Source: Gammaproteobacteria bacterium (GTDB taxonomy: Bacteria; Pseudomonadota; Gammaproteobacteria; UBA12402). From it: a stretch of 43,601 nt of DNA. Shown here in pieces: positions 3,443 to 42,538 of the stretch (its first letter is position 1; every line of letters starts with the position of its first letter). The stretch spans positions 1 through 43,601 of the forward strand of contig JAHJDF010000005.1 of assembly GCA_018812595.1 (NCBI GenBank), written 5' to 3'. Under the pieces are notes generated by a model. It saw nothing but the letters and a program-made list of their open reading frames with translations. It had not been told where the DNA came from and did not search any database. Both the position numbers and the translations under genes were made by a program.

Positions 3443-3514
3443 TGTCATCCCCTCGAAGGTGTGGATCCAGTTATATATTTATCTTCTGGATCCTTAGCTT
3501 GCGCGGGGATGACA
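3443..3514. repeat. CGTC/TGTC-type REP doublet between convergent ferredoxin and nifJ
   Basis: TGTCATCCCC..GGATCCAG, an AT-rich spacer, then CTGGATCC..GGGGATGACA. Confidence 0.9.
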
Positions 3515-3517
3515 GTT

Positions 3518-6500
3518 TTAGATTAGTTTCTCTATAAATTTCCAACGACGATCGACGTCTTCTTGAGCTTCTCTCAATAACATATTTGCTTCTTCTGGAT
3601 TAATCTTCGACAACATCGAGAAACGAGTCTCGTTCTTCATGTAATCAATCAAAGGAATGGATGGTTGTTTTGAATCTAAAGAAAATGGATTTTTCCCTTC
3701 TTTCTCTAAACGAGGATCGTATCGATACAATGGCCACGTACCGCTGTTCACCGCCAACTTCTGCTGCTCTGCGCCATAACGCAGATTAAATCCATGCGCG
3801 ATGCATTGACTGTACGCAAGAATCAATGATGGCCCCGGATAACTTTCCGCTTCTTTAATCGCTCGAATGGCCTGCGCGGGATTTGCCATCATCGCTATTT
3901 GAGCCACGTATACATACCCGTAAGGAAGCATCATTAACCCTAAATCCTTCTTCGGATTCTTTTTCCCGTGCGCAGCAAACTTCGCAATAGCTGCTCGAGG
4001 TGTTGCTTTGGAAGATTGACCGCCGGTATTGGAATACACCTGCGTATCCATCACGAGCACATTGATGTTCAAGCCAGAAGCTAATACGTGATCTAAACCT
4101 CCAAAACCAATGTCATAGGCCCATCCATCACCGCCCATCAACCAGATGCTGTGAGGAACAAGATAATCGGCCAATACAAGTAATCGACTAGCTGCTGGAT
4201 CATTTAATGACTCAAGTTTTTTCTTCAATTGCGCGACTCGTTTGCGCTGTGCATCGATGTCCTTTCCATTTTCTAAGAGCTCTTTGACCCATTGAGGCTG
4301 TTTCAATTTAGGCTCCAGTTGATGCAACAACTCCACCGCCTGTTCGTGGTGTTTATCCTCTGATATACGGAACCCTAAACCAAACTCCGCATTGTCTTCG
4401 AAGAGAGAGTTTGACCACGCCGGCCCCTTGCCTTCGGCATTTTTCGTCCAAGGTGTTGTGGGTAAATTGCCTCCGTAAATCGAAGAACAACCCGTCGCAT
4501 TAGCAACCACCATATGATCGCCAAACATCTGAGTAACCAATTTAATATAAGGCGTTTCACCACAACCCGCACAAGCACCAGAAAACTCAAACAACGGCTC
4601 AGAGAATTGTGCGGTCTTTACGTTCGTGAGATCCGTTTGCGTGCCTGTGATTTTTTCAAAAAAGCGAAGACTTTCTCTATCTTGTTCAAGATCCAGCGTT
4701 TTTTCCTGCATATTGATCGCCTTCAATTCAGGATTTTGTTTGTTTTTCGCCGGACAATTTTGCACACACAACCCGCAACCGGTGCAATCTTCTACATAAA
4801 CCTGCAATGTATATCTCTGCTTTCCTGTCTTATCTCCTTTCAACGCAGCCGATTTTAAATGCTGAGGAGCGTCTTTTAATTCCTTCTCATCGTATTGCTT
4901 CATACGAATCACACCGTGAGGACAAACAAAATTACACAACCCACATTGAATACACGTTTCAGGATCCCAAACAGGGGCAGTTGTAGACACGTTCCTCTTC
5001 TCCCATTTCGTCGTACCGGACGGGAACGTTCCGTCACAAGGCATAAAGCTCACAGGAATTTCATTGCCTTCATCTCGCATTAATTTTGCTGTGACTTCTT
5101 TCACAAAAGTTGGCGCTTCATCTGTAATTGCCGTCGTAAATTGCAACTTGCTTGTAACGTTCTTAGGAACCTTCACCTTCTTTAAGCGCTTCAATGTTTT
5201 ATCCACAGCCGCAAAGTTTTTACGAACAACTTCCTCACCTTTTTTGCCATATGTTTTTTGGATCGCTTCCTTAATTTTCTCTAACGCTGTTTCCTCCGGA
5301 AGAATCTTTGTAATGGCAAAGAAACACACTTGCATGATTGTGTTGATGTGCACACCAATGCCGCATTCTTTGGCCAACTTATAAGCATCGATCACATAAA
5401 ACTTTAACTGCTTATCAATGATGTGTTTCTGCACGACAGCTGGTAAATGATCCCAAATCTCCTTGGCGTCATAAGGGCTATTTAGTAAGAACGTCGCCTT
5501 CTTTCCTGCGCATTCCAAAAGATTGGTTTGAAACAAGAAATTAAATTGGTGGCACCCGACAAAATTAGCGGAATGAATTAAATAAGTAGAACGAATTGGA
5601 TTTGGGCCAAACCGTAAATGTGAAACTGTGCGCGCTCCTGATTTCTTAGAGTCATAAACAAAATATGCCTGCGTATACAGATCCGTATTCTCACCGATGA
5701 TCTTGATCGAATTCTTGTTCGCACCGACCGTACCGTCTGATCCAAGCCCATAAAACACAGAACGCACGACATCGATGGGTTCAATTTCAAAACTTGAGTC
5801 ATACGCCAGACTTGTGTGCGTCACGTCATCATCAATACCTATCGTGAAATGATTTTTAGGTTCTTTTTTCTTTAGCTCATCGAAAATGCCTTTGACCATT
5901 GCTGGCGTAAATTCTTTCGATGACAAACCGTAACGACCACCAGTCACAACAACCTTTCGCAATTTCTGTTCATTCAAACAAGTGGCCACTTCTTCATACA
6001 ACGGTTCGCCCACTGCCCCCGGTTCTTTAGTACGATCCAAAACGGCCAACGATTTCACGCTCTTCGGTAACATTTCTAAGAAATGTTCTTTCGGGAAAGG
6101 TCTAAATAAACGCACCTGCAAGAATCCAACAGACTTTCCTTTCTTATTTAAGTGCTCGACCGTTTCTTTAACGGTTTCACTGCCAGACCCCATAATGACA
6201 ATGACATGTTTGGCTTTTGGATCACCGAAGTAATCGATCAAGTGATAATTCCTACCTACTTTTTTAGCAAAACGGTCCATCACTTTCTCAAGAATTGAAG
6301 GCAACGCCACATAATAAGGATTCACCGTTTCGCGTCCTTGAAAAAACACGTCTGGATTTTGAGCCGTTCCACGAATCACTGGATGTTCAGAACTTAATGC
6401 GCGTTTGCGATGTTCAAAAATTAATTGTTCATCGATCATCGAACGCATTTGATCGTCCGATAACATCTCAATCTTGTTGATTTCATGGCTCGTTCTGAAC

Positions 6501-7018
6501 CCATCAAAGAAATGAACAAAAGGAACTCGCGACTCTAACGTCGCCGCTTGAGAGATAAGCGCCATGTCATGCGCTTCTTGAACACTGCTGGAACACAGCA
6601 TGGCAAATCCCGTCGAACGAACGGCCATGACATCGGTGTGATCACCAAAAATAGACAATGCTTGTGCCGCAATAGAACGAGCAGCCACATGAAAGACGGT
6701 AGGTGTCAATTCACCTGCGATCTTGTACATGTTCGGGATCATCAACAACAGCCCTTGAGAAGCTGTAAAGGTTGTCGTCAAAGCCCCTGTTTGCAGTGAA
6801 CCGTGCACAGCACCGCTTGCCCCACCTTCACTCTGCATTTCAACCACATGGGGAACCGTGCCCCACAAATTGGGTTGCCCCTCTGCCGAAAAAAGATCGG
6901 CATGTTCGCCCATCGGTGAAGAAGGGGTAATAGGATAAATAACGCACAACTCATTTAGAGGATACGCAACGCGCGCAACCGCTTCATTTCCATCGATAGC
7001 TTTCATGGTGGTGTTCAT
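3518..7018 (-). CDS. nifJ: Pyruvate:ferredoxin (flavodoxin) oxidoreductase, single-chain NifJ type
   Basis: DGNEA, YPITPS, MQSEGGA, two CxxCxxCxxxCP clusters, FEFSGACAGCGE and TPP motif GGDGWAYDIG; AAGGAG RBS before ATG 7018. Confidence 0.97.
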   Translation of the reverse strand: MNTTMKAIDGNEAVARVAYPLNELCVIYPITPSSPMGEHADLFSAEGQPNLWGTVPHVVEMQSEGGASGAVHGSLQTGALTTTFTASQGLLLMIPNMYKIAGELTPTVFHVAARSIAAQALSIFGDHTDVMAVRSTGFAMLCSSSVQEAHDMALISQAATLESRVPFVHFFDGFRTSHEINKIEMLSDDQMRSMIDEQLIFEHRKRALSSEHPVIRGTAQNPDVFFQGRETVNPYYVALPSILEKVMDRFAKKVGRNYHLIDYFGDPKAKHVIVIMGSGSETVKETVEHLNKKGKSVGFLQVRLFRPFPKEHFLEMLPKSVKSLAVLDRTKEPGAVGEPLYEEVATCLNEQKLRKVVVTGGRYGLSSKEFTPAMVKGIFDELKKKEPKNHFTIGIDDDVTHTSLAYDSSFEIEPIDVVRSVFYGLGSDGTVGANKNSIKIIGENTDLYTQAYFVYDSKKSGARTVSHLRFGPNPIRSTYLIHSANFVGCHQFNFLFQTNLLECAGKKATFLLNSPYDAKEIWDHLPAVVQKHIIDKQLKFYVIDAYKLAKECGIGVHINTIMQVCFFAITKILPEETALEKIKEAIQKTYGKKGEEVVRKNFAAVDKTLKRLKKVKVPKNVTSKLQFTTAITDEAPTFVKEVTAKLMRDEGNEIPVSFMPCDGTFPSGTTKWEKRNVSTTAPVWDPETCIQCGLCNFVCPHGVIRMKQYDEKELKDAPQHLKSAALKGDKTGKQRYTLQVYVEDCTGCGLCVQNCPAKNKQNPELKAINMQEKTLDLEQDRESLRFFEKITGTQTDLTNVKTAQFSEPLFEFSGACAGCGETPYIKLVTQMFGDHMVVANATGCSSIYGGNLPTTPWTKNAEGKGPAWSNSLFEDNAEFGLGFRISEDKHHEQAVELLHQLEPKLKQPQWVKELLENGKDIDAQRKRVAQLKKKLESLNDPAASRLLVLADYLVPHSIWLMGGDGWAYDIGFGGLDHVLASGLNINVLVMDTQVYSNTGGQSSKATPRAAIAKFAAHGKKNPKKDLGLMMLPYGYVYVAQIAMMANPAQAIRAIKEAESYPGPSLILAYSQCIAHGFNLRYGAEQQKLAVNSGTWPLYRYDPRLEKEGKNPFSLDSKQPSIPLIDYMKNETRFSMLSKINPEEANMLLREAQEDVDRRWKFIEKLI

Positions 7019-7067
7019 GCTGAATTCGCTCCTTCGGTGACTGAAAAAAGCGCGCAATATAAATGAA

Positions 7068-7337
7068 AACGTCATCTCCGCGAAGGCAAACGTCGTCCCC
7101 GCGAAAGCAAATGTCGTCCCCGCGAAAGCAAATGTCGTCTCCGCGCCATCATCGTCATCCCCGCGAAAGCAAACGTCGTCCCCGCGAAAGCAAACGTCGT
7201 CCCCGCGAAAGCGGGGATCCAGATTAATTTATTTTCTGGATCCCCGCTTTCGCGGGGATGACGATGGGGAGCTTTTGCGGGGATGACGATGGGGAGCTTT
7301 TGCGGGGATGACGATGGGGAGCTGCGAGGAAATGACA
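7068..7337. repeat. REP doublet with tandem arrays on both flanks
   Basis: About 7 copies of a ~21-bp unit AAACGTCGTCCCCGCGAAAGC on the left, a central palindrome at ~7195-7263, and ~3 copies of a 25-bp unit GATGGGGAGCTTTTGCGGGGATGAC on the right. Confidence 0.92.
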
Positions 7338-7346
7338 ATGAAAAAA

Positions 7347-9122
7347 TCAAGGCGCAAAAATAACGAGTAATTGATTGCTTTTTAATTGCTTAGAAGGATC
7401 GATTTTGTTCCAACGTTTAATGTCAGAAACACGTACACGATATTGATGCGCAATCGCGCTTAATGTCTCACCTGTTTTTACGCGATGCATGATCTTATGA
7501 GGAGCGCTCTTTTTTACGGAATGATGAGTAACTTTTTTCTTGATGACCTTTTTATGCCCCGTATGCGTGATATGCACACGAGACTTCTTCGACTTCGCTT
7601 GCGATAACCAGCCACCGGGCAATTTCAACGTTTGCCCAAGGCGAATAGAAGAATGATGCAAATGATTTTCTTTTCGTATTGTTGTGACGCTGATGTGATA
7701 TCGCTTCGCAATTGAAATTAACGAATCGCCCTTTTTCACTTTATATAAGGTCGTGTACACACGATATTTAAAATAGTGTTTAGGCGGCCAAATGATCAGC
7801 TCTTTGCCTACTTTAAGGTCCTTCTCGTGTTTAATCCCATTCCAAAAACGAATCTGCCGCGGTTTGACTTCATACTGCTTAGCAATTTTAGCCAGCGTAT
7901 CTCCAGGACGTACGACGTGATGCGTAATTTTGATTTCAGGCAAGGTCGTGTGATGTGAAAAATATTTTTTCTCTGACGCTAAAATAATTTTCGTAATGTG
8001 ACTAGAAGAAGACGGGATAAGGAGCACTTGTCCGTTGTGGAGCACATGACCGGAAATGCGATTCACGCTTCGAATAATATCAACCGAAGTTTTAAAGCGT
8101 TTTGCCACACTAATTAATGAATCCCCTTTCTTCACCTTATAACGCTGCCAAGTCACACGTCGACTCATGGGAATTTTTGCCAACTGCTTCTTAAAGCCCG
8201 CCGCTTTGTCCACCGGCAACAACAACAAATGAGGACCTTTTGGATCGGTCGCCCATCGATTAAAGCCCGGATTTAACTCCGTTAACTCTTGCAAGCTGAT
8301 AGCTGCCATGCGCGCGGCATGTTCTAAATCTATTTGGGAACCCACATCCACAGAGGCCAAGTAAGGTGCATTTTCTATAGGGGGAAGAGCTAAAGGATAG
8401 TCATCAATGTTTTTGATAATGGTGGCCAACGCCAACAATTTCGGCACATAACTTTTCGTTTCAGAAGAAAGCGGTAAATGCCAAAAATCAATTGGCTTTC
8501 CTGCTTTCAAATTTTTCTTGATAGCCGCATTGAGATTGCCTTCACCTGTGTCATAAGCCGCAATAGCAGCCAACCAATCGCCATGGAAAAAGTGGTTGAG
8601 ATACGCCAAATAATCCAAAGCGGATTTTGTTGAAGCCATGATGTCTCTTCGACCGTCATACCACCAATCTACTTTTAATCCGAAACCAGATGCTGTGCCC
8701 GGCATCATTTGCCACAAACCGGCCGCCCCCGGTTGAGAATAAGCAAAAGGGTTATAGGCACTTTCGACCATAGGAATCAACGCCAATTCAGCGGGCAAAT
8801 TACGCAACTTGACCTGTTGATAAATATAAAAAAGATAAGGTCTTGCCTGTTCAGCAACTTGACGCAAATAACCAGGATGACTGACGTACCAGTTGATTTG
8901 TTTTCGCACGTTTGGATTTTCTGGCGTTTCATCCGGCAAGCTGAAATCAGAACTCATCGCATCCCATATATTGCCAACATACTGAGTTTGCTCAGCAGGA
9001 TGATCGATCTGCGCGGGCACCGCCAAACCTCCATCGTTTGGAACCGTAGAACACGCAGTCAAAAGAAGAACGCTGCAACCTACGCAAAAGGCTGCAATAA
9101 ATAATTTAATTTTGGGAAACAT
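7347..9122 (-). CDS. mltD: Membrane-bound lytic murein transglycosylase D (SLT domain + 4 LysM)
   Basis: Lipobox LTAC; VESAYNP and AAGLWQMMP SLT motifs; four V(K/R)xG(D/E)(S/T)L LysM repeats; mltD-yafS-rnhA-dnaQ synteny. Confidence 0.9.
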   Translation of the reverse strand: MFPKIKLFIAAFCVGCSVLLLTACSTVPNDGGLAVPAQIDHPAEQTQYVGNIWDAMSSDFSLPDETPENPNVRKQINWYVSHPGYLRQVAEQARPYLFYIYQQVKLRNLPAELALIPMVESAYNPFAYSQPGAAGLWQMMPGTASGFGLKVDWWYDGRRDIMASTKSALDYLAYLNHFFHGDWLAAIAAYDTGEGNLNAAIKKNLKAGKPIDFWHLPLSSETKSYVPKLLALATIIKNIDDYPLALPPIENAPYLASVDVGSQIDLEHAARMAAISLQELTELNPGFNRWATDPKGPHLLLLPVDKAAGFKKQLAKIPMSRRVTWQRYKVKKGDSLISVAKRFKTSVDIIRSVNRISGHVLHNGQVLLIPSSSSHITKIILASEKKYFSHHTTLPEIKITHHVVRPGDTLAKIAKQYEVKPRQIRFWNGIKHEKDLKVGKELIIWPPKHYFKYRVYTTLYKVKKGDSLISIAKRYHISVTTIRKENHLHHSSIRLGQTLKLPGGWLSQAKSKKSRVHITHTGHKKVIKKKVTHHSVKKSAPHKIMHRVKTGETLSAIAHQYRVRVSDIKRWNKIDPSKQLKSNQLLVIFAP

Positions 9123-9326
9123 GAAAATTCATAGTGTGGGATTAAAAATTGCGTCGGATGGTACGAAAGCAAGATACAAACGGTCAACTAGAAGTTTTTG
9201 GAACTAGAAGTTTTGGGAAATTAGCAATTCATGATTGGTCAAGAATTGTTGAAAGAAAGATCATCACCTTGCTCACAAAACCCTTTTTCAGTAACTTCGC
9301 GCGATCTTCGTAGGAAAGGAATTCAT

Positions 9327-10079
9327 ATGGTTTATACACAAAAGAAATTTGCTGCTTGGTTGAAATCATCGTTGGCAACTGCTGTTACAACAGCGGAATC
9401 GATCGGTCTCCGCTCTTTTTGGAAGAAAATTCAAGGCATGAATCTCTTGATTCTTGGAAGCACTCAACAAGCAAAATTATTGAAAGAATGCCCAATCAAA
9501 GATCGAATTTTTGTCCCTCCACAAACAGAAGAATCTTCAACAGAACGTGTCATTAACACCCCATACAATGCATTGCCCGTCTTATCTGACACTGTCGATC
9601 TCATCGTCTTACCGCATACATTAGAAATCGTGGAGGAACCGCACGAAGTTTTACGTCATGTTGAAAAAGCACTCCGCATTGGTGGACATTTAATCATTAT
9701 CGGTTTCAATCCATGGAGTTTATGGGGACTTAGGCAATTGTTTTCATTCCGACGCAGCGCACCATGGTCTAACACTTTTTATTGTGCGTGGCGCATTAGC
9801 GATTGGCTGCGTGTTTTAAATTTTGAAGTGGTCAAACTCAATCGCACGTTGTACAGACCGCCGATCAACAACATGAAGTTTTTTCGCGCATTAAAATTTA
9901 TGGAATTCCTCGGCCGTTTTTTGTTTCCATTTTTTGGAGGCAGCTATGTTTTATTAGCAGAAAAGAAACGATACGTGCTCACACCATTAAAAGAGCAATG
10001 GAAAGAACTAGCGATGAATTTTCAAGCCAATATGGCTCCTCCGGTCACAAGGAATATTAAGCATGAATCAGACCGTTAA
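9327..10079 (+). CDS. yafS: YafS-like class I SAM methyltransferase
   Basis: [40 protein letters not shown]; located directly before rnhA; AAGGA RBS before ATG 9327. Confidence 0.8.
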
Positions 10080-10497
10080 AATTTTTACCGATGGCGCTTG
10101 TCGCGGAAACCCAGGTCCTGGTGGATGGGGCGCTGTGCTGCAATACGACCAGCACGAAAAGTATCTTTATGGTGGAGAAAGACTCACCACCAACAACCGC
10201 ATGGAACTCACCGCAGCCATTAAAGGTCTTAAAGCACTCAAACAGCCTTGTCATGTTGTATTAACAACCGATTCGAATTACGTCAAAAATGGAATCACTC
10301 AATGGATTCATCAATGGAAAAAGAACGGATGGAGAACTGCCGCAAAACAACCTGTTAAAAATGATGATTTATGGCGCGAATTAGACACCCTGACAGAACG
10401 CCACGAAATTGAATGGAAATGGATCAAAGGACACGCCGGCCATAGAGAAAACGAACTAGCCGACGAATTGGCGAATCAAGGAATAGATGAATTATAA
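10063..10497 (+). CDS. rnhA: Ribonuclease HI
   Basis: [34 protein letters not shown]. Confidence 0.98.
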
Positions 10498-29033: not shown

Positions 29034-29314
29034 CGTCATTCTTAGCTTTGGCGGGAATCCAGGGAAACCAACCTTCTAGTAATAACGCTCAAGGAACGTC
29101 ATTCCCGCGTAGGCGGGAATCCAGGGAAACCAACCTTCTAGTAATAACGCGCAAAGAACATCATTCTTAGCTTCGGCGGGAATCCAGAAAATGAATGAGA
29201 CTTGGATCCCCGCCTTCGCGGGGATGACGTTGGTCTGGGCGGGGATGACGTTGGTCTGGGCGGGGATGACGTTGGTCTGGGCGGGGATGACGTTGGTCTG
29301 GGCGGGGATGACGT
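29034..29314. repeat. REP cluster: two 62-63-bp tandem units, a doublet, then four 21-bp units
   Basis: REP starts at 29034, 29097 and 29159 with near-identical spacers; GTTGGTCTGGGCGGGGATGAC x4 at 29229-29312. Confidence 0.92.
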
Positions 29315-29369
29315 CAGTGTTTGTTTTTAGATGTATGTGGTATGTGAATTTTAATGAGGGAGCCCTGCG

Positions 29370-32727: not shown

Positions 32728-32730
32728 ATC

Positions 32731-32934: not shown

Positions 32935-32937
32935 TTC

Positions 32938-32966
32938 AAAAGGGCGAACAATCGCCCTTTTCTTTC
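32938..32966 (+). terminator. Intrinsic terminator of rpmB-rpmG
   Basis: AAAAGGGCGA-ACAA-TCGCCCTTTT followed by CTTT. Confidence 0.8.
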
Positions 32967-33028
32967 TCCTTCACTCTCCATTCCTTGTGCTATCCTTATT
33001 CCATCTTCATCAATAAAAACAAGTTGTT

Positions 33029-33445: not shown

Positions 33446-33492
33446 CACAAGATGTGAAAAACATAGCTCTGCAATTTGCAGCATCGCCATCC

Positions 33493-34470
33493 CTAACGAG
33501 GGATTCTTTTTCTATACCCAGTATTGAGTCTTCTTTGTGCCAACCGTTCTTCCTGTTCTCGTAGCAATTTTTCTGAACTTTCCAAAACCACGTTTACCAA
33601 ATCAGTCGCATTGATGGGTGGGAAGAAAACCCCAACCTCATCAGCCTCTTCATAAATCTTAGTGCTCACAGAATCATTTTCGACTTCAACAGTTACGGTT
33701 ATCCCAAGCTCTTCACTATCAAAAACACTAAGGTAAGGAGACAGTTGCAAAGTGAGCGGCTTATCTTCGATAGAAAGCGATAAATCATCTCTTTCCCCTC
33801 GACTCAAAAAGTCATAAAAACTTTTACGAAACACGTCATCACGCAACAATCTAAATAAACCCTTATATTCTTCTACCCGTTCATCTTCCGTGTTGTCATC
33901 TGGTCGTTGGCCTCCATACACGCTTAAAGCATTTAAACGCACCACTTCTATCTCTTTTAAATTGAGAGAACCAATTCGCTTCAAGCTTTCGGTCAAGAAA
34001 ATACGCAGATGCGCTTGCTGCTCTTCATAATTTTGACCTTCCTCAACTTCTTCTAACTCCGACTCTGTTTCCAAATCCGAATCCTCATCTGTTTCTGATT
34101 CTGTTTCTGATTCTGATTCTGATTCTGAAATCTCACTATCGTCTTCTGCGCTGTCAATCAAACGATCCATGCCCGAGTGAAATAGAGCAATATAACGCTT
34201 CCACTCTTTGCTTACCTGCACCTCAAAATCCAAAACAAACACTAAACACGAAGCAACAGCTCCGGTAAAAAGATGTTCTCCTTTTTGAAACGGAATAACC
34301 TTTAGTTCATCCATGTCCACATCCACTTCGCTTAACAATTTGCACCATGCTGGCAAAGAAACAAATTGTTCTCGCTCATCTTTTATTCTTCTTCTTTTAA
34401 ACATAAGACCCTCTTTTGTTTCTCTAATTAAATCTTCAAAAATATAGTAATGAAAATGCCTTTTTGCCAA
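33493..34470 (-). CDS. Hypothetical acidic protein with an ES/ET low-complexity tract
   Basis: 325-aa ORF; a 6-nt microsatellite at ~34088-34127 encodes SESESESETESETD. Confidence 0.7.
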   Translation of the reverse strand: MAKRHFHYYIFEDLIRETKEGLMFKRRRIKDEREQFVSLPAWCKLLSEVDVDMDELKVIPFQKGEHLFTGAVASCLVFVLDFEVQVSKEWKRYIALFHSGMDRLIDSAEDDSEISESESESETESETDEDSDLETESELEEVEEGQNYEEQQAHLRIFLTESLKRIGSLNLKEIEVVRLNALSVYGGQRPDDNTEDERVEEYKGLFRLLRDDVFRKSFYDFLSRGERDDLSLSIEDKPLTLQLSPYLSVFDSEELGITVTVEVENDSVSTKIYEEADEVGVFFPPINATDLVNVVLESSEKLLREQEERLAQRRLNTGYRKRIPR

Positions 34471-34574
34471 TCACCAACCAACGATAAAAATCTCAGCATT
34501 ACTTTTCACACATTTAAAAATGTGTCGTAAACTTTTCAGGGAATTTTCAACACCACCTTAAAAGGAATTTACAT

Positions 34575-35105
34575 ATGTACATATTCAAACGCTCTCTAAC
34601 CACTCTCGCACTTTTTATTTATAGCATTACCGCTTTAGCCCTACCGACGTCACCCTCTAAAAATCCACCGTTGCAACTTCTATTCATTCAAGAAGCTAAA
34701 ATCGCTGAGCTCACGCCAATGCAACAAACAGGGCAGTACCAACTAACACTGAAACAAGTCTCACCCAGAGTGATTTATTTTTCAGACAGGCCTCATCGAG
34801 TCGTTGGACAAACGACAACCAGTAAATTCATCAACGCATGGAATAAAAATTCAGACAGTTTCGCAAAAAATAATCCGAATGCTGCGTTGCATTATGCGAC
34901 CTTCGAAGCAAGCAATAAGCATGGTATTCACACAACGGTCTATAAATTACAGAAACCCGTATACAACAAAGCAGCCCATACCTTGACTTATCAAGTCACG
35001 CCATTGCAAACCGACTTTGCTCTAGCGCATATCACTTATCATGACCCTGTTTTATTCATCGATTCCTTCATACCAAGCTGTGGCGTAACATGCGAAATCA
35101 TGTAG
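34575..35105 (+). CDS. Secreted hypothetical protein
   Basis: Signal peptide; LLFIQEA, YFSDRPHR, NPNAAL and LFID motifs; AAGGA RBS. Confidence 0.8.
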   Translation: MYIFKRSLTTLALFIYSITALALPTSPSKNPPLQLLFIQEAKIAELTPMQQTGQYQLTLKQVSPRVIYFSDRPHRVVGQTTTSKFINAWNKNSDSFAKNNPNAALHYATFEASNKHGIHTTVYKLQKPVYNKAAHTLTYQVTPLQTDFALAHITYHDPVLFIDSFIPSCGVTCEIM

Positions 35106-35116
35106 AAAATCTATGC

Positions 35117-35143
35117 GGTGGAGACAATAAAAGAGTCTCCACC
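35117..35143. terminator. Hairpin between the secreted ORF and ankH
   Basis: GGTGGAGAC-N9-GTCTCCACC; argues against the GTG start at 35118. Confidence 0.45.
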
Positions 35144-35147
35144 CCTT

Positions 35148-36572
35148 ATGACCAACCATTTCAACCATATGAATCACACACTTTCAGACGCCATCATTTA
35201 CGATTCTGCCGAAGCAGTGCAACAACTCGCAACATCTCCTGATCTCAATAAATTCGATGAATACGGCTACACACCACTGATTCAAACCGCCATTGTGAAC
35301 GACACACAGAAAGCGCAAATCGTTATAAATGCCGGTGCCGACGTAAATGGATTTGATTTAACAGGAAGAACAGCGCTGCATTGGGCTGCTGAAAACAACA
35401 ATCTTGAGCTGTGCAAGTTATTACTCAAACACAAAGCAAACCCCAATGCATATACAAGAGCAGGACAACCCGTCCTCGTGATGCCCTTGCTACGCAACTA
35501 TCGATCGATCACAAAGCTCATTCGATCACGAGAAGGAGACCTCAACTTCGCGCAAGATTTCATTAACACAAAATTACTCGGCCATCGGTTCGAGCTGCTC
35601 GGCCAAGTAGACATCGTTGATAACACGAACACTTTCATCGAAATCAATTACGAAGGTTTCTATTTAGAATTCACCGTAGCGTTGGCATTGCATTCGTTGC
35701 TGAGTTTTCAAAACAACTACGCCGCTCGAAACTTACGCCCGCTTTTCAATCAAATTGGAAAAATCGCAACCGCAATACATATTGCGAGCAAGCTCATCAG
35801 TTACCAAAATTACCTGGTAAACGTAGAACAAAATCAAAGCACGATTCAAAAACTACTTAGCTATCCGTTACGAATGATCCCCGTTGCTTACCAAGGCCAT
35901 GCCATTTCCTTCATGCAATTAGGCCCCTATTTTGCTCGTTGTGATCGCGGCGCATTTGGTAAAAAGCACGGCACAGCGATCATCTACGTCATGAAACACC
36001 CTGAACTTTTTACAGACCAATTGATTCAAAAATTGATGTACACCCGCCAACACTCCGCTTTTATTGAGCGAGGAATTGATGAAACGCTCGATTTAATCCC
36101 TTTGATGACGCTGCCATTGTCTCCACAAACTGCGGGCAATTGTTCCTGGGCAAACACCGAAGGATCCGCTCCGATCATGCTTGCCATGCTCTTGCTTTAC
36201 GAGCTTCACGATCACTCACAACAAGACTTAAAAATCATCGAAAAAGAAGCAATGAATTTTTATGAGAATTGGGTGGAATGGGATAAACGAATTGCGCTCA
36301 TTCACTGTATTGATGCATTCAAGTACGCGAACAAAGCAAGGCGTGCATCGAAAGCCGCTGTGCTCGCGGCAATCTTTTTCCAAAGTTGTGATTACGACGA
36401 TCCAAAAGACAGGGAAAAAGTTAAAAAAATTCTTCCCATCCTAACAAACGCACAATATCGCTACATTCTAAAAAGCTATGTGGATGTCTACTGTAAAGAT
36501 AGTGAATCAGAAGATGCCAAACGATTACTTGGCATCCTGGATGATTTTGGAATTGATGCGTCGCAACTATAA
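35148..36572 (+). CDS. ankH: Dot/Icm effector AnkH (LegA3) homologue: ankyrin repeats + cysteine-protease-like domain
   Basis: DEYGYTPLI, DLTGRTALHWA, KLLGHRFEL-G-VDIV, YEGF-LEFT, GHA, CDRG, GNCSWAN, WVEWDK and YILKSY match AnkH as recalled along its full length. Alternative start at 35169. Confidence 0.88.
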   Translation: MTNHFNHMNHTLSDAIIYDSAEAVQQLATSPDLNKFDEYGYTPLIQTAIVNDTQKAQIVINAGADVNGFDLTGRTALHWAAENNNLELCKLLLKHKANPNAYTRAGQPVLVMPLLRNYRSITKLIRSREGDLNFAQDFINTKLLGHRFELLGQVDIVDNTNTFIEINYEGFYLEFTVALALHSLLSFQNNYAARNLRPLFNQIGKIATAIHIASKLISYQNYLVNVEQNQSTIQKLLSYPLRMIPVAYQGHAISFMQLGPYFARCDRGAFGKKHGTAIIYVMKHPELFTDQLIQKLMYTRQHSAFIERGIDETLDLIPLMTLPLSPQTAGNCSWANTEGSAPIMLAMLLLYELHDHSQQDLKIIEKEAMNFYENWVEWDKRIALIHCIDAFKYANKARRASKAAVLAAIFFQSCDYDDPKDREKVKKILPILTNAQYRYILKSYVDVYCKDSESEDAKRLLGILDDFGIDASQL

Positions 36573-37040
36573 TTTTCGTTGCAATGCAGCTTGGACAAGC
36601 TTAGGCACGAAAGACGATACATCCCCTCCTGCTATCGCAATTTCTTTAATCAAACTAGAAGAAACAAAGGTGTAATTCTCTGAAGGGGTAAGAAACACCG
36701 TTTCAATCTCTCCCAAAAAACGATTCACGCTCGCCATTTGAAATTCATAATCAAAATCAGAAACAACCCTTAACCCTCTTAAAATAATGTTTGTTTCTTG
36801 TTCTTTAGCAAAATCAGCTAACAATCCAGAAAACCCTTTCACTGCAACACGGTTGTCTTCAGCAAACACACCTCGGACTAACTGTTCGCGTTCTTGCAAA
36901 GAAAACAAAGGTGCTTTTCTTGGATTGTCAGCAATGCCAACAACCACCGTATCAAAAATTTCTAATGCTCTTTTAATGAGGTCTACATGCCCATACGTAA
37001 TGGGATCAAAGGTCCCTGCATAAATAATTTTGTTTTTCAT
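36567..37040 (-). CDS. coaD: Phosphopantetheine adenylyltransferase
   Basis: GTFDPITYGH, RGLRVVSDFDYE, VSSSLIKEIA. Confidence 0.98.
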   Translation of the reverse strand: MKNKIIYAGTFDPITYGHVDLIKRALEIFDTVVVGIADNPRKAPLFSLQEREQLVRGVFAEDNRVAVKGFSGLLADFAKEQETNIILRGLRVVSDFDYEFQMASVNRFLGEIETVFLTPSENYTFVSSSLIKEIAIAGGDVSSFVPKLVQAALQRKL

Positions 37041-37075
37041 GTTCGTTCCTCAATGTTTTTCTATAACTTCGCCAT

Positions 37076-37202
37076 CGTCATTCTTAGCTTCTTACTGAAA
37101 TCCAGATCCGCTCTGTCATTCCCGCGCAGGCGGGAATCCAGAATTAATATATTTTTCCAGATCCACACCGAAGCGGGGATGACGACAGAATCGGGGATGA
37201 CG
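37076..37202. repeat. Composite REP cluster between coaD and topA
   Basis: Degenerate half, doublet, then one 18-bp end duplication (ACAGAATCGGGGATGACG). Confidence 0.88.
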
Positions 37203-37209
37203 ATTCTTA

Positions 37210-39483
37210 TTACGCCTTTTCGACGTAGTCACAATTCTTTTGGGGGCAAACTTTTTCTGCGCCTCGACGTTTCGTTGTTTTCAGCGTCAATAATGGCCAC
37301 CTGCATTTCGGACACACTTCTTCGATCGGCTCATCCCACACAGCGTATTTGCAATCCGGATACCGTGAACAAGAATAAAAAATCTTCCCTCGTTTAGAAC
37401 GCCGTTTAAGCATCGTCCCTTTATGACATTCAGGACAACGCACCCCGGTATCCTCTGGCTTTTGCAGAGATTCAATGTATTTACATTTCGGATACCCGCT
37501 ACAGGCTATAAATTTTCCATATCTTCCTGTGCGAACAATTAAATCGGAACCGCACTGTGGACATTTTCTTCCTTCCACAACCTCCGGCTTCACCTCTTCT
37601 TTGGCATTCTCATCAAGGTTTCTCGTGTAATCACAATCTGGATAACCAGAACACCCCACAAAACGCCCACGACGCCCCAACCGGATCGTTAATTTCTTGC
37701 CACATTTAGGACACTCTTCATCTAATGCTTCTTGTGTCACATCTTTTCGTTGAACAGTTTCTCCGACCTCATCAATTCTCTTTTTAAAAGGCGCCCAAAA
37801 CATTTCAAGCAACGGCAGCCAAACTTTTTCACCGCGAGCAATTGCATCTAAATCGTCTTCTAAGTGCGCCGTAAAATCATAGTCCACGTATTGAGTGAAG
37901 TACTCGGTCAAAAAGCGATTCACCACGCGCCCTAAATCGGTCAAATGAAACCGCTTTTGCTCAAGCGTTGCATACTCTCGGTTAATGAGCGTAGAAATAA
38001 TACTGGAATAAGTGGAAGGGCGACCGATGCCATACTCTTCTAATGCCTTCACCAAACTTGCTTCGGAATAACGCGGCGGCGGTTCTGTAAAATGCTGCTC
38101 ACAAAGAATATCGCGCAAATCCACCACATCGCCTTCGGACAACGGTGGAAGCACTTTTTCATCCGATTCTTGTTTCTTCGTGTCATCTAGGCTTTCTTGA
38201 TAAACCAAAATAAACCCTGGAGTCACAATGGTTGAACCGTTGGCACGAAAATAATTTTTCTGCCCGCAAAGCAAATCAACCGCCACGGTATTCATCGTTG
38301 CATGAATCATCTGGCACGCGAGGGTTCGTTTCCAAATTAAGTTGTACAACTTGAATTGATCGCTCGACAACGCATGACGAATAGATTCTGGCTCTCGCAA
38401 AATTGAAGTTGGTCGGATGGCTTCATGCGCTTCTTGCGCATTTTTCGATTTGCTTCGGTATTTCCGTGCCGTTGCTGGCACATTTTCTTTTCCAAAACGA
38501 TCCGCAATAAACCCACGTATTTCTTGAATTGCCTCATCCGCTAAATTCACAGAATCCGTACGCATGTAGGTAATCAAACCGGCAGAACCTTCACCAATAT
38601 CGATGCCTTCATACAATTGCTGAGCAATACGCATCGTACGTTGCGTGGTAAACCCGAGTTTTCTTGAAGCCTCCTGTTGCAATGTCGATGTAATAAAAGG
38701 CGCCGCAGGATTTCGTTTTCGTTGTTTCTTCTCAACTTTATCAACCGTCAACGTTCCATCGGCTTCTTTTAATAATTTTTTCTTAACATCCGCAGCCTGT
38801 TTCTTATTGACCACCGTAAATTGTTCAACTTTCTTGTCTTGATAAACCGTCAACTTGGCATCAAACACGCTATCTTTTTCACACTGAGCAACAACACTCC
38901 AATATTCTTTGGTTTCGAATTTTTCGATTTCAAGTTCACGCTCAGCAATCAAACGCAACGCAGGGCTTTGCACACGACCGGCCGACAAACCCGCACGAAT
39001 TTTTTTCCAAAGCAATGGGGATAGATTGAACCCAACCAAATAATCTAACGCACGTCGAGCTTGTTGCGCATTCACCAAACTCATATCAATCGCACGAGGA
39101 TTTTTAATAGCTTCTTGAATCGCCGACTTTGTAATTTCATGAAACGCTACTCGAAAAATAGACTTGTTCTTCAAAGCCCCCTTCTCCTGCAGAATCTCAT
39201 AGATATGCCACGCAATAGCCTCCCCTTCGCGATCAGGGTCAGTCGCCAAATACAAAGTATCGACCTTCTTTAAAGCCTTGATGATTTCATCCACATGCTT
39301 TGCATTTTTTTCGATGATTTCGTAATGCATTTTGAAATCATTTTGCGTCTCGACTGCACCTTCTTTCGGCAAAAGGTCTCGAACATGTCCGAAAGAAGCA
39401 AGAACGACGAAATCTTTACCAAGGTATTTTGTAATGGTTTTAGATTTTGCCGGGGATTCAACAATGACTAAATTTTTACTCAT
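37210..39483 (-). CDS. topA: DNA topoisomerase I with C-terminal zinc ribbons
   Basis: IVESPAK, ATDPDREGE, SAGRVQS, ITYMRTDS, QEAHEAIRPT, GIGRPSTY; repeated CPxC ribbons. Confidence 0.98.
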   Translation of the reverse strand: MSKNLVIVESPAKSKTITKYLGKDFVVLASFGHVRDLLPKEGAVETQNDFKMHYEIIEKNAKHVDEIIKALKKVDTLYLATDPDREGEAIAWHIYEILQEKGALKNKSIFRVAFHEITKSAIQEAIKNPRAIDMSLVNAQQARRALDYLVGFNLSPLLWKKIRAGLSAGRVQSPALRLIAERELEIEKFETKEYWSVVAQCEKDSVFDAKLTVYQDKKVEQFTVVNKKQAADVKKKLLKEADGTLTVDKVEKKQRKRNPAAPFITSTLQQEASRKLGFTTQRTMRIAQQLYEGIDIGEGSAGLITYMRTDSVNLADEAIQEIRGFIADRFGKENVPATARKYRSKSKNAQEAHEAIRPTSILREPESIRHALSSDQFKLYNLIWKRTLACQMIHATMNTVAVDLLCGQKNYFRANGSTIVTPGFILVYQESLDDTKKQESDEKVLPPLSEGDVVDLRDILCEQHFTEPPPRYSEASLVKALEEYGIGRPSTYSSIISTLINREYATLEQKRFHLTDLGRVVNRFLTEYFTQYVDYDFTAHLEDDLDAIARGEKVWLPLLEMFWAPFKKRIDEVGETVQRKDVTQEALDEECPKCGKKLTIRLGRRGRFVGCSGYPDCDYTRNLDENAKEEVKPEVVEGRKCPQCGSDLIVRTGRYGKFIACSGYPKCKYIESLQKPEDTGVRCPECHKGTMLKRRSKRGKIFYSCSRYPDCKYAVWDEPIEEVCPKCRWPLLTLKTTKRRGAEKVCPQKNCDYVEKA

Positions 39484-39554
39484 TTTTTACTCATTTTTTA
39501 AATTTAGGAATTTAATGGATGACGTATAGACAATAACCATGACGTGACAAGCAT

Positions 39555-40034
39555 CTAATGTACAACGCTTTTATCTTCGGAAAACAGGATGTCTTCTAAC
39601 AATTGCAGAGATTTACTCATAGAAGGACAGTAATACAACACCATAAAAACAACCACTTTGACGTCTTTAACATCTAAGAACACTTCATCCAACGCCATCA
39701 GACGATCCAGCACAACCTCGCGCATCACGGCATTCAAAACTCCGATTCGCTCTAAGGAAAGTAGATATTCTTGTGCGTCCACACTCAATCGTTTCTGTTC
39801 TTCATCTGTTAATATGCGAAAAGTTCCGCGCGTTACTTTCTTTATTTTTTTAACAAGTCTTAAGAGTTTTTTTAAAGTGCGAAACCACAATAACGTTTCG
39901 TCAACGGATTGCGTTTGAAACCCCGCCTCAATCACTTCTCTTTTCATATCATCAATGGCTTGATCTTCGTAATTGTTTTGTAAAGCATTCGTATCAAAGT
40001 AACTATCAAACAAATACGTCAGTACTTCTATCAT
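39555..40034 (-). CDS. smg: Smg / DUF494 protein
   Basis: MIEVLTYLFD, EAGF, FRILTDEE, REVVLDRLMAL; located upstream of topA. Confidence 0.85.
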   Translation of the reverse strand: MIEVLTYLFDSYFDTNALQNNYEDQAIDDMKREVIEAGFQTQSVDETLLWFRTLKKLLRLVKKIKKVTRGTFRILTDEEQKRLSVDAQEYLLSLERIGVLNAVMREVVLDRLMALDEVFLDVKDVKVVVFMVLYYCPSMSKSLQLLEDILFSEDKSVVH

Positions 40035-40174
40035 CTTGTTTGCTCATGTTGTTCATTTCATTACATGCGATTGTATGACGCAAAATATAGCTCAATGCAA
40101 GTCAGTCCGCTGAGATTCCTCTCTAACAAGTTCATCAATAGGCCAATAACCCCTTTGAAACGATCCATCTCCAT

Positions 40175-42538
40175 CTATAACTCTATACCACTCATCCAAA
40201 TTTGACCGAGGCTGATGCTTCCGTCGGAGGGAGGTAATTGATTGGGTAGAAAAGTACGAATGTTTTTTTGGATTAATAAGCGTGTTAAGTCTTCTGTTAA
40301 AACTTTATTTAAAAAACAGCCTCCGCTCATCACGACAGTTTTAATGCCCGTCTCTTGAGAAGCGCACGACACCCAATCTGCTAATGCAGCTGATAACGTG
40401 CCGTGAAAACATGCAGCGCCCTCTTTTTGATTCATAGGCAACAACTTCAAGAACAAAGGCGTCAGGTCTAGTTCGTTGTTCTCTGTAATACGCCAACCCG
40501 CCCGATCAACAACAGGCGTCAAGACCAAACTTTCTAAGCACATGGCGGCTTGTCCCTCGTATGCCGAAACGGTTTGCACACCTAACAATGCACTTGCTGC
40601 ATCAAACAGACGCCCACAACTGCTTGTTCTTGGGGAATGGATCTCTCGATCCAAAATCTGTAGCACCGAAGACAACGATTGAAATGTATGAAATCGCTGC
40701 TGAATTGCCTCTTGTTTTCCCAACTGGTGCAATACGCTCACGGCCATCCGCCACGGTTCTCGTGCCGCAATATCTCCTCCCGGTTGAGCCAACGTTTTTA
40801 GATGCCCTAGCCGCTGATAGCGCGCTCCTTCTAATAAAAAAAGTTCGCCGCCCCACGATTCGCCTTGTTCGCCGTAGCCATACCCATCCAGTGACAGCCC
40901 CAAGACAGGTTCTTGCAAATGATGTTCTGCCATCACTGCTGCGCAATGTGCGTGATGATGTTGAACTCCGATGGCCGGCACTCCTTGTGCTTGTGCCCAC
41001 TGTGTTGAATAAAAATCGGGGTGCCAATCGTGCGCGATGTATTCAGGTTTCACGTCCAGCAATTTCAACAAATGCTCTAAGGACTCTTGAAAGAATTGGA
41101 TCGTCTCTGCGTTCTCTAGATCGCCGATATATTGCGAAACATAAGCTTCATTCCCACGTACAACACAGAATGTGTTTTTCAAAAGTCCTCCAACCGCTAA
41201 ACCAGGTGGCAAAGAACGCGCTAATTTTATTGCATTAGGGACATACCCTCTGGCACGTCGCACAAACAATGGTTTTCGGTTCACGACATTAACTACGGAA
41301 TCATCCACCCGCGTCAAAATGTCACGATTGTAAGAAACGATCGCATCCGCAATGTTTTCGAGTTCCTTTTCTGCTTTTTGATCATCAATTAATAGCGGCT
41401 GTCCGCTTAAATTTGCGCTGGTTACAACCAAAACAACATCTTGTTTTTCTGCGAACCACAGATCGCCTTTAGGACGATCTAACAAACCATGGAAAAGCAA
41501 ATAATGCAGCGGGGTAGACGGCAACATGACGCCAAAGCTCGACAATCCTTGCGCGATGTCTGGTGCTAATAGCTGTGTTGCTGTTGTTTCTGGATCCCCG
41601 CTTTCGCGGGGATGACGAAGAGCGGCTTCATGGGGATGACGAAGAGCGGCTTCATGGGGATGACGAAGAGCGGCTTCATGGGGATGACGAGAGAACACTT
41701 TTTTAGGCAATAACACGATGGGCCGGCTTCTATCTTGCAATAGCTCCTCTGCTTCAGGAGAAGTTTCAGCAAAAGAATCTAAGCTCGACACATTTAATGT
41801 CATCAATGCAAACGGCTTCGCATCACGCTGTTTCCGTTGTCTTAAACGATGAACTGCATTTTTATTGTGTGCGTCACAAATCAATTGATATCCACCCAAC
41901 CCTTTCACCGCCACGATCTCGCCCGCTTGAATTTTGGAAACGATTTCGTCTATTGGCATGGAAAGTTTTGGACCGCATGCGGGACAAGCAGTTGGTTGCG
42001 CGTGGTACCGACGGTTGAGAGGATCCGAATAATCTTTTTGGCACGATTCACACAAAGGAAAAGTTCGCATAGACGTTTGTGAACGATCGTAAGGAAGGCT
42101 TTGAATGATGGTGAGTCTCGGGCCGCAATTGGTGCAATTTAAAAATGGATAATGGAAAAAGCGGCTTTTGGGATCGAACAACTCCTGTAAACAGTCGTTG
42201 CAAATACAAATGTCCGGAGAAATACACGTTGCAACTTTTTCGCTTTTTTGACTTTGAATAATGGAAAAACCGACCTCGTTTTTCTTTGGTTCAATGTCTT
42301 CTAAAACAATCTCATCAATCACTGCAAGCGGCGGCAAATCCTTTCGAAGTTTTTCAACAAATTGATCGACGCCTTCGCCTTGAATTTCAACAGTAACACC
42401 CGAGCTGTGATTAAAAACAAATCCAGTACATTGGAGTGCAATCGCAATCCGGTAAACACACGGACGAAATCCAACGCCCTGAACACGGCCATTGATGTGC
42501 AACCGTTTTCGCTTTTGAGGAGATTGCTGCGAGATCAT
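40175..42538 (-). CDS. hypF: [NiFe]-hydrogenase maturation carbamoyltransferase HypF, with an in-frame repeat insertion
   Basis: GRVQGVGFRP, CxxC zinc fingers, KGLGG, TSAN, QHHHAH, SSCGRLFDA, DGSISLGQ; ATGA overlap with the hypB stop. Confidence 0.95.
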   Translation of the reverse strand: MISQQSPQKRKRLHINGRVQGVGFRPCVYRIAIALQCTGFVFNHSSGVTVEIQGEGVDQFVEKLRKDLPPLAVIDEIVLEDIEPKKNEVGFSIIQSQKSEKVATCISPDICICNDCLQELFDPKSRFFHYPFLNCTNCGPRLTIIQSLPYDRSQTSMRTFPLCESCQKDYSDPLNRRYHAQPTACPACGPKLSMPIDEIVSKIQAGEIVAVKGLGGYQLICDAHNKNAVHRLRQRKQRDAKPFALMTLNVSSLDSFAETSPEAEELLQDRSRPIVLLPKKVFSRHPHEAALRHPHEAALRHPHEAALRHPRESGDPETTATQLLAPDIAQGLSSFGVMLPSTPLHYLLFHGLLDRPKGDLWFAEKQDVVLVVTSANLSGQPLLIDDQKAEKELENIADAIVSYNRDILTRVDDSVVNVVNRKPLFVRRARGYVPNAIKLARSLPPGLAVGGLLKNTFCVVRGNEAYVSQYIGDLENAETIQFFQESLEHLLKLLDVKPEYIAHDWHPDFYSTQWAQAQGVPAIGVQHHHAHCAAVMAEHHLQEPVLGLSLDGYGYGEQGESWGGELFLLEGARYQRLGHLKTLAQPGGDIAAREPWRMAVSVLHQLGKQEAIQQRFHTFQSLSSVLQILDREIHSPRTSSCGRLFDAASALLGVQTVSAYEGQAAMCLESLVLTPVVDRAGWRITENNELDLTPLFLKLLPMNQKEGAACFHGTLSAALADWVSCASQETGIKTVVMSGGCFLNKVLTEDLTRLLIQKNIRTFLPNQLPPSDGSISLGQIWMSGIEL
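41590..41690. repeat. REP plus three 24-bp tandem units inside hypF
   Basis: CTGGATCCCCGCTTTCGCGGGGATGAC (41590-41616) followed by GAAGAGCGGCTTCATGGGGATGAC x3 (41617-41688). Confidence 0.95.

Follow-up and report, generated by a model that had tools for sequence, protein, structure and literature searches.

How one half of a small hairpin repeat comes to be reiterated on one side of the hairpin, while the other half never is, is the question raised by a 43,601-nucleotide stretch of DNA (the window throughout what follows) that forms contig JAHJDF010000005.1 of the gammaproteobacterial assembly GCA_018812595.1. The window is contig C101 of a genome of 1.47 Mb in 122 contigs with 41.9% G+C, and it is dotted with copies of a repetitive extragenic palindrome (REP) whose tag and 5' arm are, at several loci, copied outward in tandem together with a short linker. 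The repeat family and a nuclease that acts on it are already published; polar arrays of the tag-bearing half on the cut side were not found described in the accessible text of the two papers concerned (PMC3733652; PMC11893778). These arrays involve the tag half, run outward, occur in several phyla and are not a property of other hairpins; such one-sidedness hints at a process that has a direction and sets out from the side on which the published nuclease cuts. The accessible parts of both papers leave open how the repeat spreads, and PMC11893778 also leaves open its multiplication and the role of the nuclease, Ssn, in bacteria other than Neisseria; the one-sided arrays offer a testable clue.

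The repeat family and the polarity of its arrays

Di Nocera, De Gregorio and Rocco (2013; PMC3733652) define CGTC-tagged REPs, among which the CGTC-1 type has an 8-bp stem starting with AT, a 4-nt loop and a CCA tail, occurs chiefly as head-to-head dimers and is equated with Neisseria dRS3 and Rickettsia RPE-6 (RPE, Rickettsia palindromic element). The same hairpin was named NTS, or Ssn-related motif (SRM), by Chenal et al. (2025; PMC11893778); statements made here about either paper refer to the parts of its text that were accessible. Judged by their sequence, the palindromes of the window are CGTC-1 REPs, identical in kind with NTS/dRS3 and the SRM, which fits the published definition and bears out an earlier note on this DNA that had taken them for CGTC-type REPs of the dRS3 kind. 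With at most one mismatch allowed, GGGGATGACG is matched 43 times in the window, against a mean of 1.23 and a maximum of 4 in 100 dinucleotide shuffles. The full unit is laid out as C-GTC-ATYCCCGC-(GAAA, GTAG, GCAG or GAAG)-GCGGGRAT-CCAG, that is, tag, 8-bp stem, 4-nt loop and tail; its GAAA-loop form, CGTCATYCCCGCGAAAGCGGGRATCCAG, has 82 exact matches in the genome (reversed control, 0), and 276 genomic copies fit GTCATYCCCGC-N4-GCGGGRATCC. Across the genome the repeats have the CGTC-1 stem, loop and tail (8 bp starting with AT, 4 nt, CCA) and the CGTC (or TGTC/CCTC) tag, C standing at position -1 of GTCAT in 68% of single and 87% of internal copies, and they fit the NTS/SRM consensus CGTCATTCCCGCGMAVGCGGGAATCYRG or the degenerate SRM form, a subfamily with ATCCCC/GGGGAT departing from the NTS consensus by one compensated pair. 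The commonest arrangement is a pair of units that face each other across an AT-rich loop of ~15 nt with their tags outward, and head-to-head dimers predominate genome-wide ('><' transitions 111, '<>' transitions 3). A sub-form in which one arm reads CTAAGRAT (or ATYCTTAGC), and in which the small hairpin is weakened, is present in 70 copies genome-wide vs the 276 canonical ones, with examples in the window at 16730-16762, 20937-20965 and 23609-23681; it might be a decayed or a nuclease-resistant hairpin.

The arrays built from this repeat are a feature of the genome as a whole. The motif is present in 116 of the 190 tandem repeats with a period of 15-35, and its direct copies form 184 runs of 2-8 units at spacings of 15-48 nt, with peaks at 21 (59 cases), 33 (59) and 25 nt (36). 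Homogeneous blocks consist of short units in 145 cases, of full hairpin plus spacer in 45 and of other units in 40, and 93 of the 145 short-unit blocks lead directly into a full hairpin. The short module comprises an upstream extension of ~8 nt, the tag and the 5' arm, to which the loop and 1-2 further bases are added in some cases, and its tandem units measure 18-28 nt; the half units are joined by a short pyrimidine-rich linker and lie always on the tag side of the full unit, in the same orientation. Units of full hairpin and spacer, 31-36 nt long, build similar arrays. Roughly a third of the repeat copies in this genome sit within half-unit arrays.

Two comparisons establish the direction and the specificity of the reiteration. 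The 5' half (GTCATYCCCG) has 731 copies and forms 199 direct pairs 15-30 nt apart, whereas the 3' half (CGGGRATCCA) has 324 copies and forms none. The second comparison, which the earlier note had set as a test of its reading, took all perfect hairpins whose stem is 8 bp long and whose G+C content reaches 50% or more: a repeat of the outer arm and 3 nt, 15-30 nt further out, is present in 95 of the 315 that belong to the family and in 2 of the 192 other GC-rich hairpins, both of these 2 being sequence variants of the family. Reiteration thus belongs to the CGTC-1 repeat and to one of its halves. The fixed polarity that had been noticed in the window likewise extends to the genome, where 109 of the 112 clusters with both orientations are strictly tags-outward.

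The features of the window are given below; arrays were delimited with Tandem Repeats Finder (TRF), except for the 25-bp units at 16664/16778 and the 18-bp step at 37175/37193, which were placed by eye.

3442..3515: head-to-head CGTC-1 REP/NTS pair, tags TGTC.../...GACA, no extra half units, behind the PFOR gene
7067..7212, + strand: 5' half-unit array (tag, 5' arm, loop and AAA/AAT), 21 bp x 7.0, 84% matches, running into the hairpin at 7195 (TRF)
7195..7263: core head-to-head pair (hairpin, AT-rich loop, inverted hairpin)
7246..7323, - strand: array of 25 bp x 3.1, a plain tandem triplication of loop, arm, tag and 7 nt of flank, with 3-nt microhomology (GCT) (TRF)
14836..14863, + strand: lone NTS-like hairpin within the 3' end of a dapF-like open reading frame (ORF)
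16664..16787: 25-nt half unit, head-to-head pair and 25-nt half unit, the half units being exact reverse complements, linker included
19500..19569: tail and 9-nt spacer of another, degenerate unit, then a head-to-head pair
20871..20965: one 23-nt half unit, then a head-to-head pair whose right hairpin is the CTTAGC variant
23562..23681: two diverged half units with differing linkers (23562, 23585), then a head-to-head pair
25845..25940, + strand: half-unit array, 26-28 bp x 3.5, running into the pair at 25931-26003 (TRF)
26015..26080, + strand: second short array, 28 bp x 1.9 (TRF, 26015-26068), ending in a hairpin tagged on both sides
29036..29187, + strand: array of 62 bp x 2.4, degenerate hairpin plus 35-nt spacer, NIME-like in layout and unlike the half-unit arrays in style (TRF)
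29203..29314, - strand: full hairpin (29203-29229) and 21-bp x 4.6 array (29218-29314), 100% identical (TRF)
37112..37202: head-to-head pair whose right hairpin is degenerate, plus one additional 18-nt half unit (37175/37193)
41590..41690, - strand: single hairpin (41590-41617) and half-unit array of 24 bp x 3.5 (41608-41690), 100% identical, inside hypF (TRF)
40175..42649, - strand: hypF ORF (TIGR00143, two matched stretches) with a 40-residue insertion

All arrays listed in the earlier note were recovered, either by TRF or as single extra units visible in the sequence, and the loci at 20871 and 23562 carry half units too; the 11 clusters that it counted come to 10 solid clusters and two single weak matches (13920, 14837). 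The unit at 29218 corresponds to a 33-nt full unit (hairpin plus 6-nt spacer) from which the loop and 3' arm are missing, and it recurs on contig C41 (C41:4635) beside full 33-nt units. Derivation of short units from 33-nt full units by loss of loop and 3' arm is clear for a few cases (29218 = C41:4635; C35 vs C39) and was rejected as a general rule. Folding of the array region 29170-29325 as single-stranded DNA (ssDNA) gave z = -1.67, with an ensemble frequency of 0.0011 for the best fold.

The breakpoint, described as constant in the earlier note, is so at the outer edge and not at the inner one. Among the 113 outermost short-unit blocks that lie away from contig ends, 83 have their outer edge 0-3 nt 5' of GTCAT, whereas the inner edge is scattered over hairpin positions 9-19: in the full set of 145 blocks the consensus is left after 9, 10 or 11 nt from GTCAT in 22, 15 and 25 cases, at positions 12-15 in 42 and at positions 16-18 in 32. 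The match between flank and unit end in the 113 blocks extends over 0 nt in 24, 1 nt in 24, 2 nt in 25, 3 nt in 10, 4-6 nt in 6 and at least 7 nt in 24, where the same units, set against flanks taken from unrelated single copies, would give 60.5, 31.1, 15.2 and 4.1 for 0-3 nt; there is an excess of 2-3 nt matches (35 vs ~15 expected, with the null rescaled to the 89 blocks without a match of 7 nt or more). With one mismatch allowed, the linker is found upstream of the outermost copy in just 24 of the 113 blocks, and partially in 4 more; it is absent in 78, the remaining 7 having linkers shorter than 4 nt, and most arrays are therefore bounded by the motif at both ends.

The linkers had been thought to differ from array to array, and this is true of the units as wholes, of which 109 of 121 distinct short ones occur at one place only, but not of their ends, since 42 of 105 linker ends (the last 8 nt plus GTCAT) recur at another locus. 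For 33 of 106 blocks the 7-mers of the linker occur no more than 200 nt upstream, and for 16 of 106 they occur downstream as reverse complements, with ~6 expected by chance; the reverse-complement matches stem mostly from mirror-image arrays, and the remaining linkers have no local template (200-250 nt). The idea that linkers are decayed copies of the flank was tried and set aside, an identity of 30.0% vs 26.4% +/- 1.6 (z = 2.3) being too weak to account for them. In composition, linkers resemble the flanks of single copies, both following yyyywYC, with C at -1, T/C at -2, A/T at -3, pyrimidines to -7 and little G. The 8 nt upstream of non-internal copies include 79 redundant 8-mers, vs 10.0 +/- 2.7 after column shuffling, and the 8-mers ACTGTATC, TCTGTTCC and CCCGTTTC recur directly 5' of GTCAT at 9, 6 and 6 loci, respectively; in some subfamilies the dispersed unit therefore extends at least 8 nt past the tag. 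Mirror-image half units flank both sides of a pair in the window (16664/16786) and on contigs C47, C11 and C66.

Within genes the arrays are translated. At the hypF locus, hairpin and array are read in frame as (RHPHEAAL)x3 followed by RHPRESGDPE, and the 823-codon frame stays open. Empty sites, which the earlier note had proposed to compare, were available for hypF: the HypF proteins of three relatives (G007, G018 and G009; 63, 62 and 46% identical to the one here over this stretch) align on both sides and lack the 40 residues, from which it follows that the repeat was inserted into the gene and then grew in place. Long ORFs (at least 80 codons on each side) contain 10 blocks at 7 loci, all with periods divisible by 3 (21, 24, 30, 33 or 36), a property shared by about half of the spacings genome-wide. 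The term sequence-generating system, offered as a candidate reading in the earlier note, goes too far; what the arrays do is add in-frame peptide repeats to at least 7 long ORFs, as is known for related repeats. The arrays have practical consequences, for they break assemblies (many contigs end in arrays), create spurious ORFs and put perfect peptide repeats into conserved proteins such as HypF. Logan contigs from 4 runs in 4 studies show the same flanks and reach the array edges, ending at 25904, 29079/29285, 37128-37136 and 41614-41616/41661; none spans an array, which is what assembly graphs built from short words would lead one to expect. Many junctions in the same contigs connect repeat copies of different loci and were left out of account. 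The species is represented in several groundwater and biofilm samples, 7 runs containing at least half of its sampled words.

A hairpin nuclease and its association with the repeat

The Ssn GIY-YIG nucleases, N. meningitidis SsnA and its homologues, bind the single-stranded form of the hairpin and make their cut a few nt upstream, and cutting persists when the two halves of the hairpin are on separate strands; the ssn gene is typically flanked by the repeat, in a layout that has been likened to an insertion sequence (Chenal et al., 2025). No enzyme gene of the kinds that the earlier note had considered (HUH/RAYT, IS110-type or small GIY-YIG) lies within the window, as it had stated. Its third guess agrees with the published Ssn, which cuts on the array side of the hairpin, and an ssn homologue is found between repeats on contig C45. 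GIY-YIG matches in the genome number two, one of them UvrC-sized and the other a 94-codon frame at C45:22423-22641 (PF01541, 53.5 bits), which is the sole ssn copy found in the whole genome with a three-sequence profile. It has the published character of a single-domain GIY-YIG protein of ~95 aa with repeats in its flanks, and the repeat-flanked nuclease gene for which the earlier note had suggested looking can be recognized in it: two half units and a hairpin lie upstream, and two half units, a hairpin pair and more lie downstream. Comparison of an Ssn homologue with PDB sequences returned spurious WD40 matches and a weak UPF0213 match only, and the homologue received no NCBIfam name.

The other two enzyme classes fared worse. 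PF01548 and PF02371, which would mark an IS110-type enzyme, have 0 matches in the genome, which is 100% complete by marker genes, although repeats often go unassembled and absence is to that extent not proven. The only Y1 transposase gene of the genome (PF01797; contig C73), the candidate for an HUH/RAYT enzyme, is bracketed by a different, 48-nt palindrome and by 119-bp repeats; it matches NF033573 with 57.4 bits against a cut-off of 55, and a half-unit array lies ~1 kb away. At this locus (C73:21853-25197) the IS200-like Y1 gene stands between two perfect 48-nt palindromes, the 119-bp repeats forming a tandem of three to one side and a lone inverted copy to the other, and degenerate CGTC repeat ends surround the ensemble.

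The association of ssn with the repeat extends far beyond this genome. A scan of one genome per species found 518 relatives, of which the best 80, with 59-77% identity in the best tblastn segment, were kept; they represent Planctomycetota, Chloroflexota, Nitrospirota, cyanobacteria, Desulfobacterota and a number of classes of proteobacteria. In 69 of the 80 loci a copy of the motif stands no more than 500 bp from ssn. Inverted copies with their tags outward bracket the gene in 39, a copy is present upstream only in 15 and downstream only in 11, and 15 have neither. The association in these 80 loci reproduces the published one. Short direct pairs of the 5' half number 31 at these loci, distributed over 10 of them, and pairs of the 3' half 0. 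Among 401 sampled genomes of the class, runs of at least three half units occur in 9, this one included, with 103 pattern hits followed by 53, 23, 17, 12, 10, 6, 4 and 4; the reversed pattern gave 0 throughout, except for 2 hits in one genome without forward hits. Half-unit pairs (1-9 each) were present in 5 of 5 further genomes with the 5'-half motif, three from the same family and two re-tested from the class sample, and Ssn homologues in 7 of 10 repeat-bearing genomes tested. Within the family, copies of the 17-nt pattern number 470 in this genome vs 80, 55 and 17 in three other genera. In a distant genome (G381 contig C36; L010 1380-2000), the hairpins that bracket ssn, ~10 nt away from its start and its stop, belong to another CGTC-tagged family (stem ACCCCGGA...); one of them is preceded by a truncated 5' half unit, and CGTC-1 copies lie directly outside.

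How the arrays may arise

Nuclease-started re-copying followed by slippage is a plausible, if still tentative, source of the half-hairpin arrays. Ssn would bind to the folded hairpin in ssDNA, its cut falling a few nt 5' of the tag, as published for Neisseria SsnA; repair or restart at the break would re-copy the neighbouring module of tag and 5' arm, and synthesis would halt where the hairpin starts to fold, which would leave a fixed outer and a ragged inner edge. Once two copies were present, slippage or unequal exchange could grow, shrink and homogenise the array. The single 3' arm is a possible partner for each of the 5' halves, so that misalignment would be favoured, and each such half might supply an additional cut site. 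Some units, or entire composite elements, may then spread to further loci, and within genes survival would be limited to arrays with a period divisible by 3. We infer that an Ssn cut on the tag side starts the re-copying and that slippage between identical units drives growth and homogenisation. A more specific proposition, namely that the arrays are products of Ssn in the cell, that Ssn and its motif constitute a self-amplifying pair and that the cut is repaired by re-copying the cut site and 5' arm, we regard as doubtful. If it were true, the arrays would record the positions of Ssn cuts, add cut sites and write new peptide repeats inside genes, and there would be a first mechanism for the multiplication of CGTC REPs and SRMs, which the accessible parts of PMC3733652 and PMC11893778 leave open.

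A number of observations weigh against re-copying started by Ssn. The C45 gene (22400-22700; locus L008 900-1202) has no ATG, GTG or TTG between the upstream stop and the GIY motif, the likely ATG being in another frame; it looks shifted by one base near its 5' end, as in a young pseudogene or through an assembly indel, and several arrays are 100% identical although this lone ssn looks frameshifted. With the query used, ssn was not found in 3 array-bearing genomes, which are 87, 78 and 64% complete. The Neisseria cut, read from the oligonucleotide lengths given by Chenal et al. (2025), lies 3 nt 5' of CGTC, whereas the tracts here begin mostly 0-3 nt 5' of GTCAT and so lie closer to the hairpin by a few bases. 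Under any simple model of local re-copying a linker should stand upstream of the outermost copy, and it does so only in the 24 blocks and 4 partial cases already mentioned; most linkers are without a template in 200-250 nt, and their likeness to the flank (30.0% vs 26.4% +/- 1.6) is barely above chance. Half-unit blocks show no significant bias with respect to the strand exposed on the lagging side (63 vs 48, p = 0.18), an initial excess of 89 vs 52 pairs having been rejected when counted per block.

Arrays might also grow from a very stable hairpin by plain replication slippage or unequal exchange, in which no nuclease takes part and the fork stalls, the nascent end re-pairs by microhomology and the tract expands like a minisatellite; this remains a live rival because the single ssn looks frameshifted as assembled, and yet we think it rather unlikely as the whole explanation. 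It would account readily for the 95-100% identity of units within arrays, the ragged inner breakpoints, the lack of significant strand bias and the coexistence of young-looking arrays with a broken-looking ssn, and 24 of the 113 outermost blocks, together with the window array at 7246, are indeed simple duplications of flank and repeat end with 0-3 nt of microhomology. What it does not readily explain is that effectively 0 of ~190 unrelated GC-rich hairpins of equal stem length show reiteration, that the 3' half is never reiterated (0 vs 199 pairs), with a one-sidedness shared by distant phyla, and that 78 of 113 arrays are motif-bounded at both ends with a linker unlike the adjacent flank, an outcome impossible in one slippage step. 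Seeding by ready-made modules is a further rival: a mobile piece made of upstream extension, tag and part or all of the hairpin, or a composite pair with half units, would land beside or within an existing copy and be amplified locally afterwards. The upstream 8-mers common to different loci (79 redundant vs 10.0 +/- 2.7), the 42 of 105 linker ends that recur elsewhere, the identical half units at unrelated loci and as mirror images (16664/16786; C47, C11, C66), and the single position-specific make-up, yyyywYC, of linkers and single-copy flanks all speak for such insertion. We nevertheless consider it improbable, given that 109 of the 121 whole units are confined to a single place, that Ssn is a hydrolytic nuclease for which no transposase-like activity is known from the accessible text of PMC11893778, and that insertion alone leaves the exclusive pile-up of 5' halves unexplained.

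The two remaining alternatives carry far less weight. That an HUH/RAYT or IS110-type recombinase drives the arrays is very improbable and already close to refuted: the elements that bracket the one Y1 gene on C73 (NF033573, 57.4 bits), which has a half-unit array ~1 kb off, are a 48-nt palindrome and 119-bp repeats of its own and not CGTC hairpins, PF01548 and PF02371 are without a match in the genome, and no transposase gene flanked by CGTC repeats is reported in the accessible text of Di Nocera et al. (2013). That the arrays are artefacts of short-read metagenome assembly might be suspected from the many contigs of the genome that end in arrays and from the Logan contigs, which never span one, and is all the same scarcely credible, for contigs of 4 runs, each run from a different study, agree in the flanks and array edges, a single read is longer than most arrays, which are moreover internal to contigs, the hypF array keeps its 823-codon frame open, 10 of 10 intragenic blocks have a period divisible by 3, and similar arrays occur in records titled as whole chromosomes (L028, L057). 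Re-copying started at a nuclease cut and continued by slippage remains the account of the half-hairpin arrays that we tentatively prefer.

Comparison with known systems, and other features of the window

The NIMEs of Neisseria are built of whole dRS3 copies with RS blocks of 50-150 bp set between them in alternation. The arrays here share with the Neisseria dRS3/NIME arrangement a hairpin core repeated along intergenic DNA with intervening blocks, and the 62-bp array at 29036-29187 resembles it; the units are otherwise 18-36 bp long, mostly without the 3' arm, with spacings that peak at 21, 25 and 33 bp, and that one array alone comes close to a NIME. In REPIN-RAYT and BIME systems, pairs of inverted hairpins are reportedly dispersed through the genome, with a single-copy gene for an enzyme acting on ssDNA located between two copies. 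The enzyme there is an HUH tyrosine transposase and the tag GTAG, as against a GIY-YIG hydrolase and CGTC in the present case, and BIMEs alternate in orientation; the palindrome served by the RAYT-like gene found here is a different one. Rickettsia palindromic elements are said to be inserted in frame in genes, and these in-frame hairpin repeats in conserved proteins have a counterpart in HypF here, where the insert has also grown by 24-bp half units into a perfect 8-residue peptide repeat.

The closest relatives are the two published descriptions of the family itself. With the CGTC-1 REPs of Di Nocera et al. (2013) the repeats have in common the tag, the 8-bp stem, the 4-nt loop, the CCA tail, the head-to-head dimers and some intragenic copies; in the accessible text of that paper clusters are called rare, and no dedicated transposase is named for CGTC repeats nor any found flanked by them, whereas ~1/3 of the copies here are in half-unit arrays. 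The NTS/SRM-Ssn system (PMC11893778) has the same consensus, the NTS-ssn-NTS layout that is found here and in 39 of the 80 loci, and a cut 5' of the hairpin, which is the array side; it differs in that it concerns whole hairpins and natural transformation in Neisseria, and in that the present ssn copy has the look of a frameshifted gene. In the accessible text of either paper no description was found of arrays made solely of the tag-bearing half, and the word 'tandem' is absent from the main text of PMC11893778. Literature searches joining GIY-YIG with repetitive extragenic palindromic found nothing, those with REPIN irrelevant items only, and those with dRS3 or SsnA PMC11893778 only. QMITE1/2 of Coxiella were considered and rejected as a different element, QMITE2 carrying, according to the accessible part of PMC5896051, a GTAG REP hit by IS1111.

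With regard to the remaining content of the window, genes for PFOR, the maturation proteins HypA/B/F, acetate kinase and phosphotransacetylase (3518-7075, 40175-43544, 35118-36572) are found beside a gene for an AnkH/LegA3-like Dot/Icm effector, and the genome as a whole holds Legionellales-type genes (LbtU porin, AnkH/LegA3-like protein) along with those for PFOR and hydrogenase maturation. The gene set of the window hints that this groundwater bacterium lives in association with a host, under anaerobic or microaerobic conditions. A hexamer repeat of another kind, TCTGAT x 6.8 at 34088-34128, lies within the minus-strand ORF 33493-34470; it is 12 bp shorter in contigs of 2 of the 4 public runs and is therefore a coding repeat of variable length in the population.

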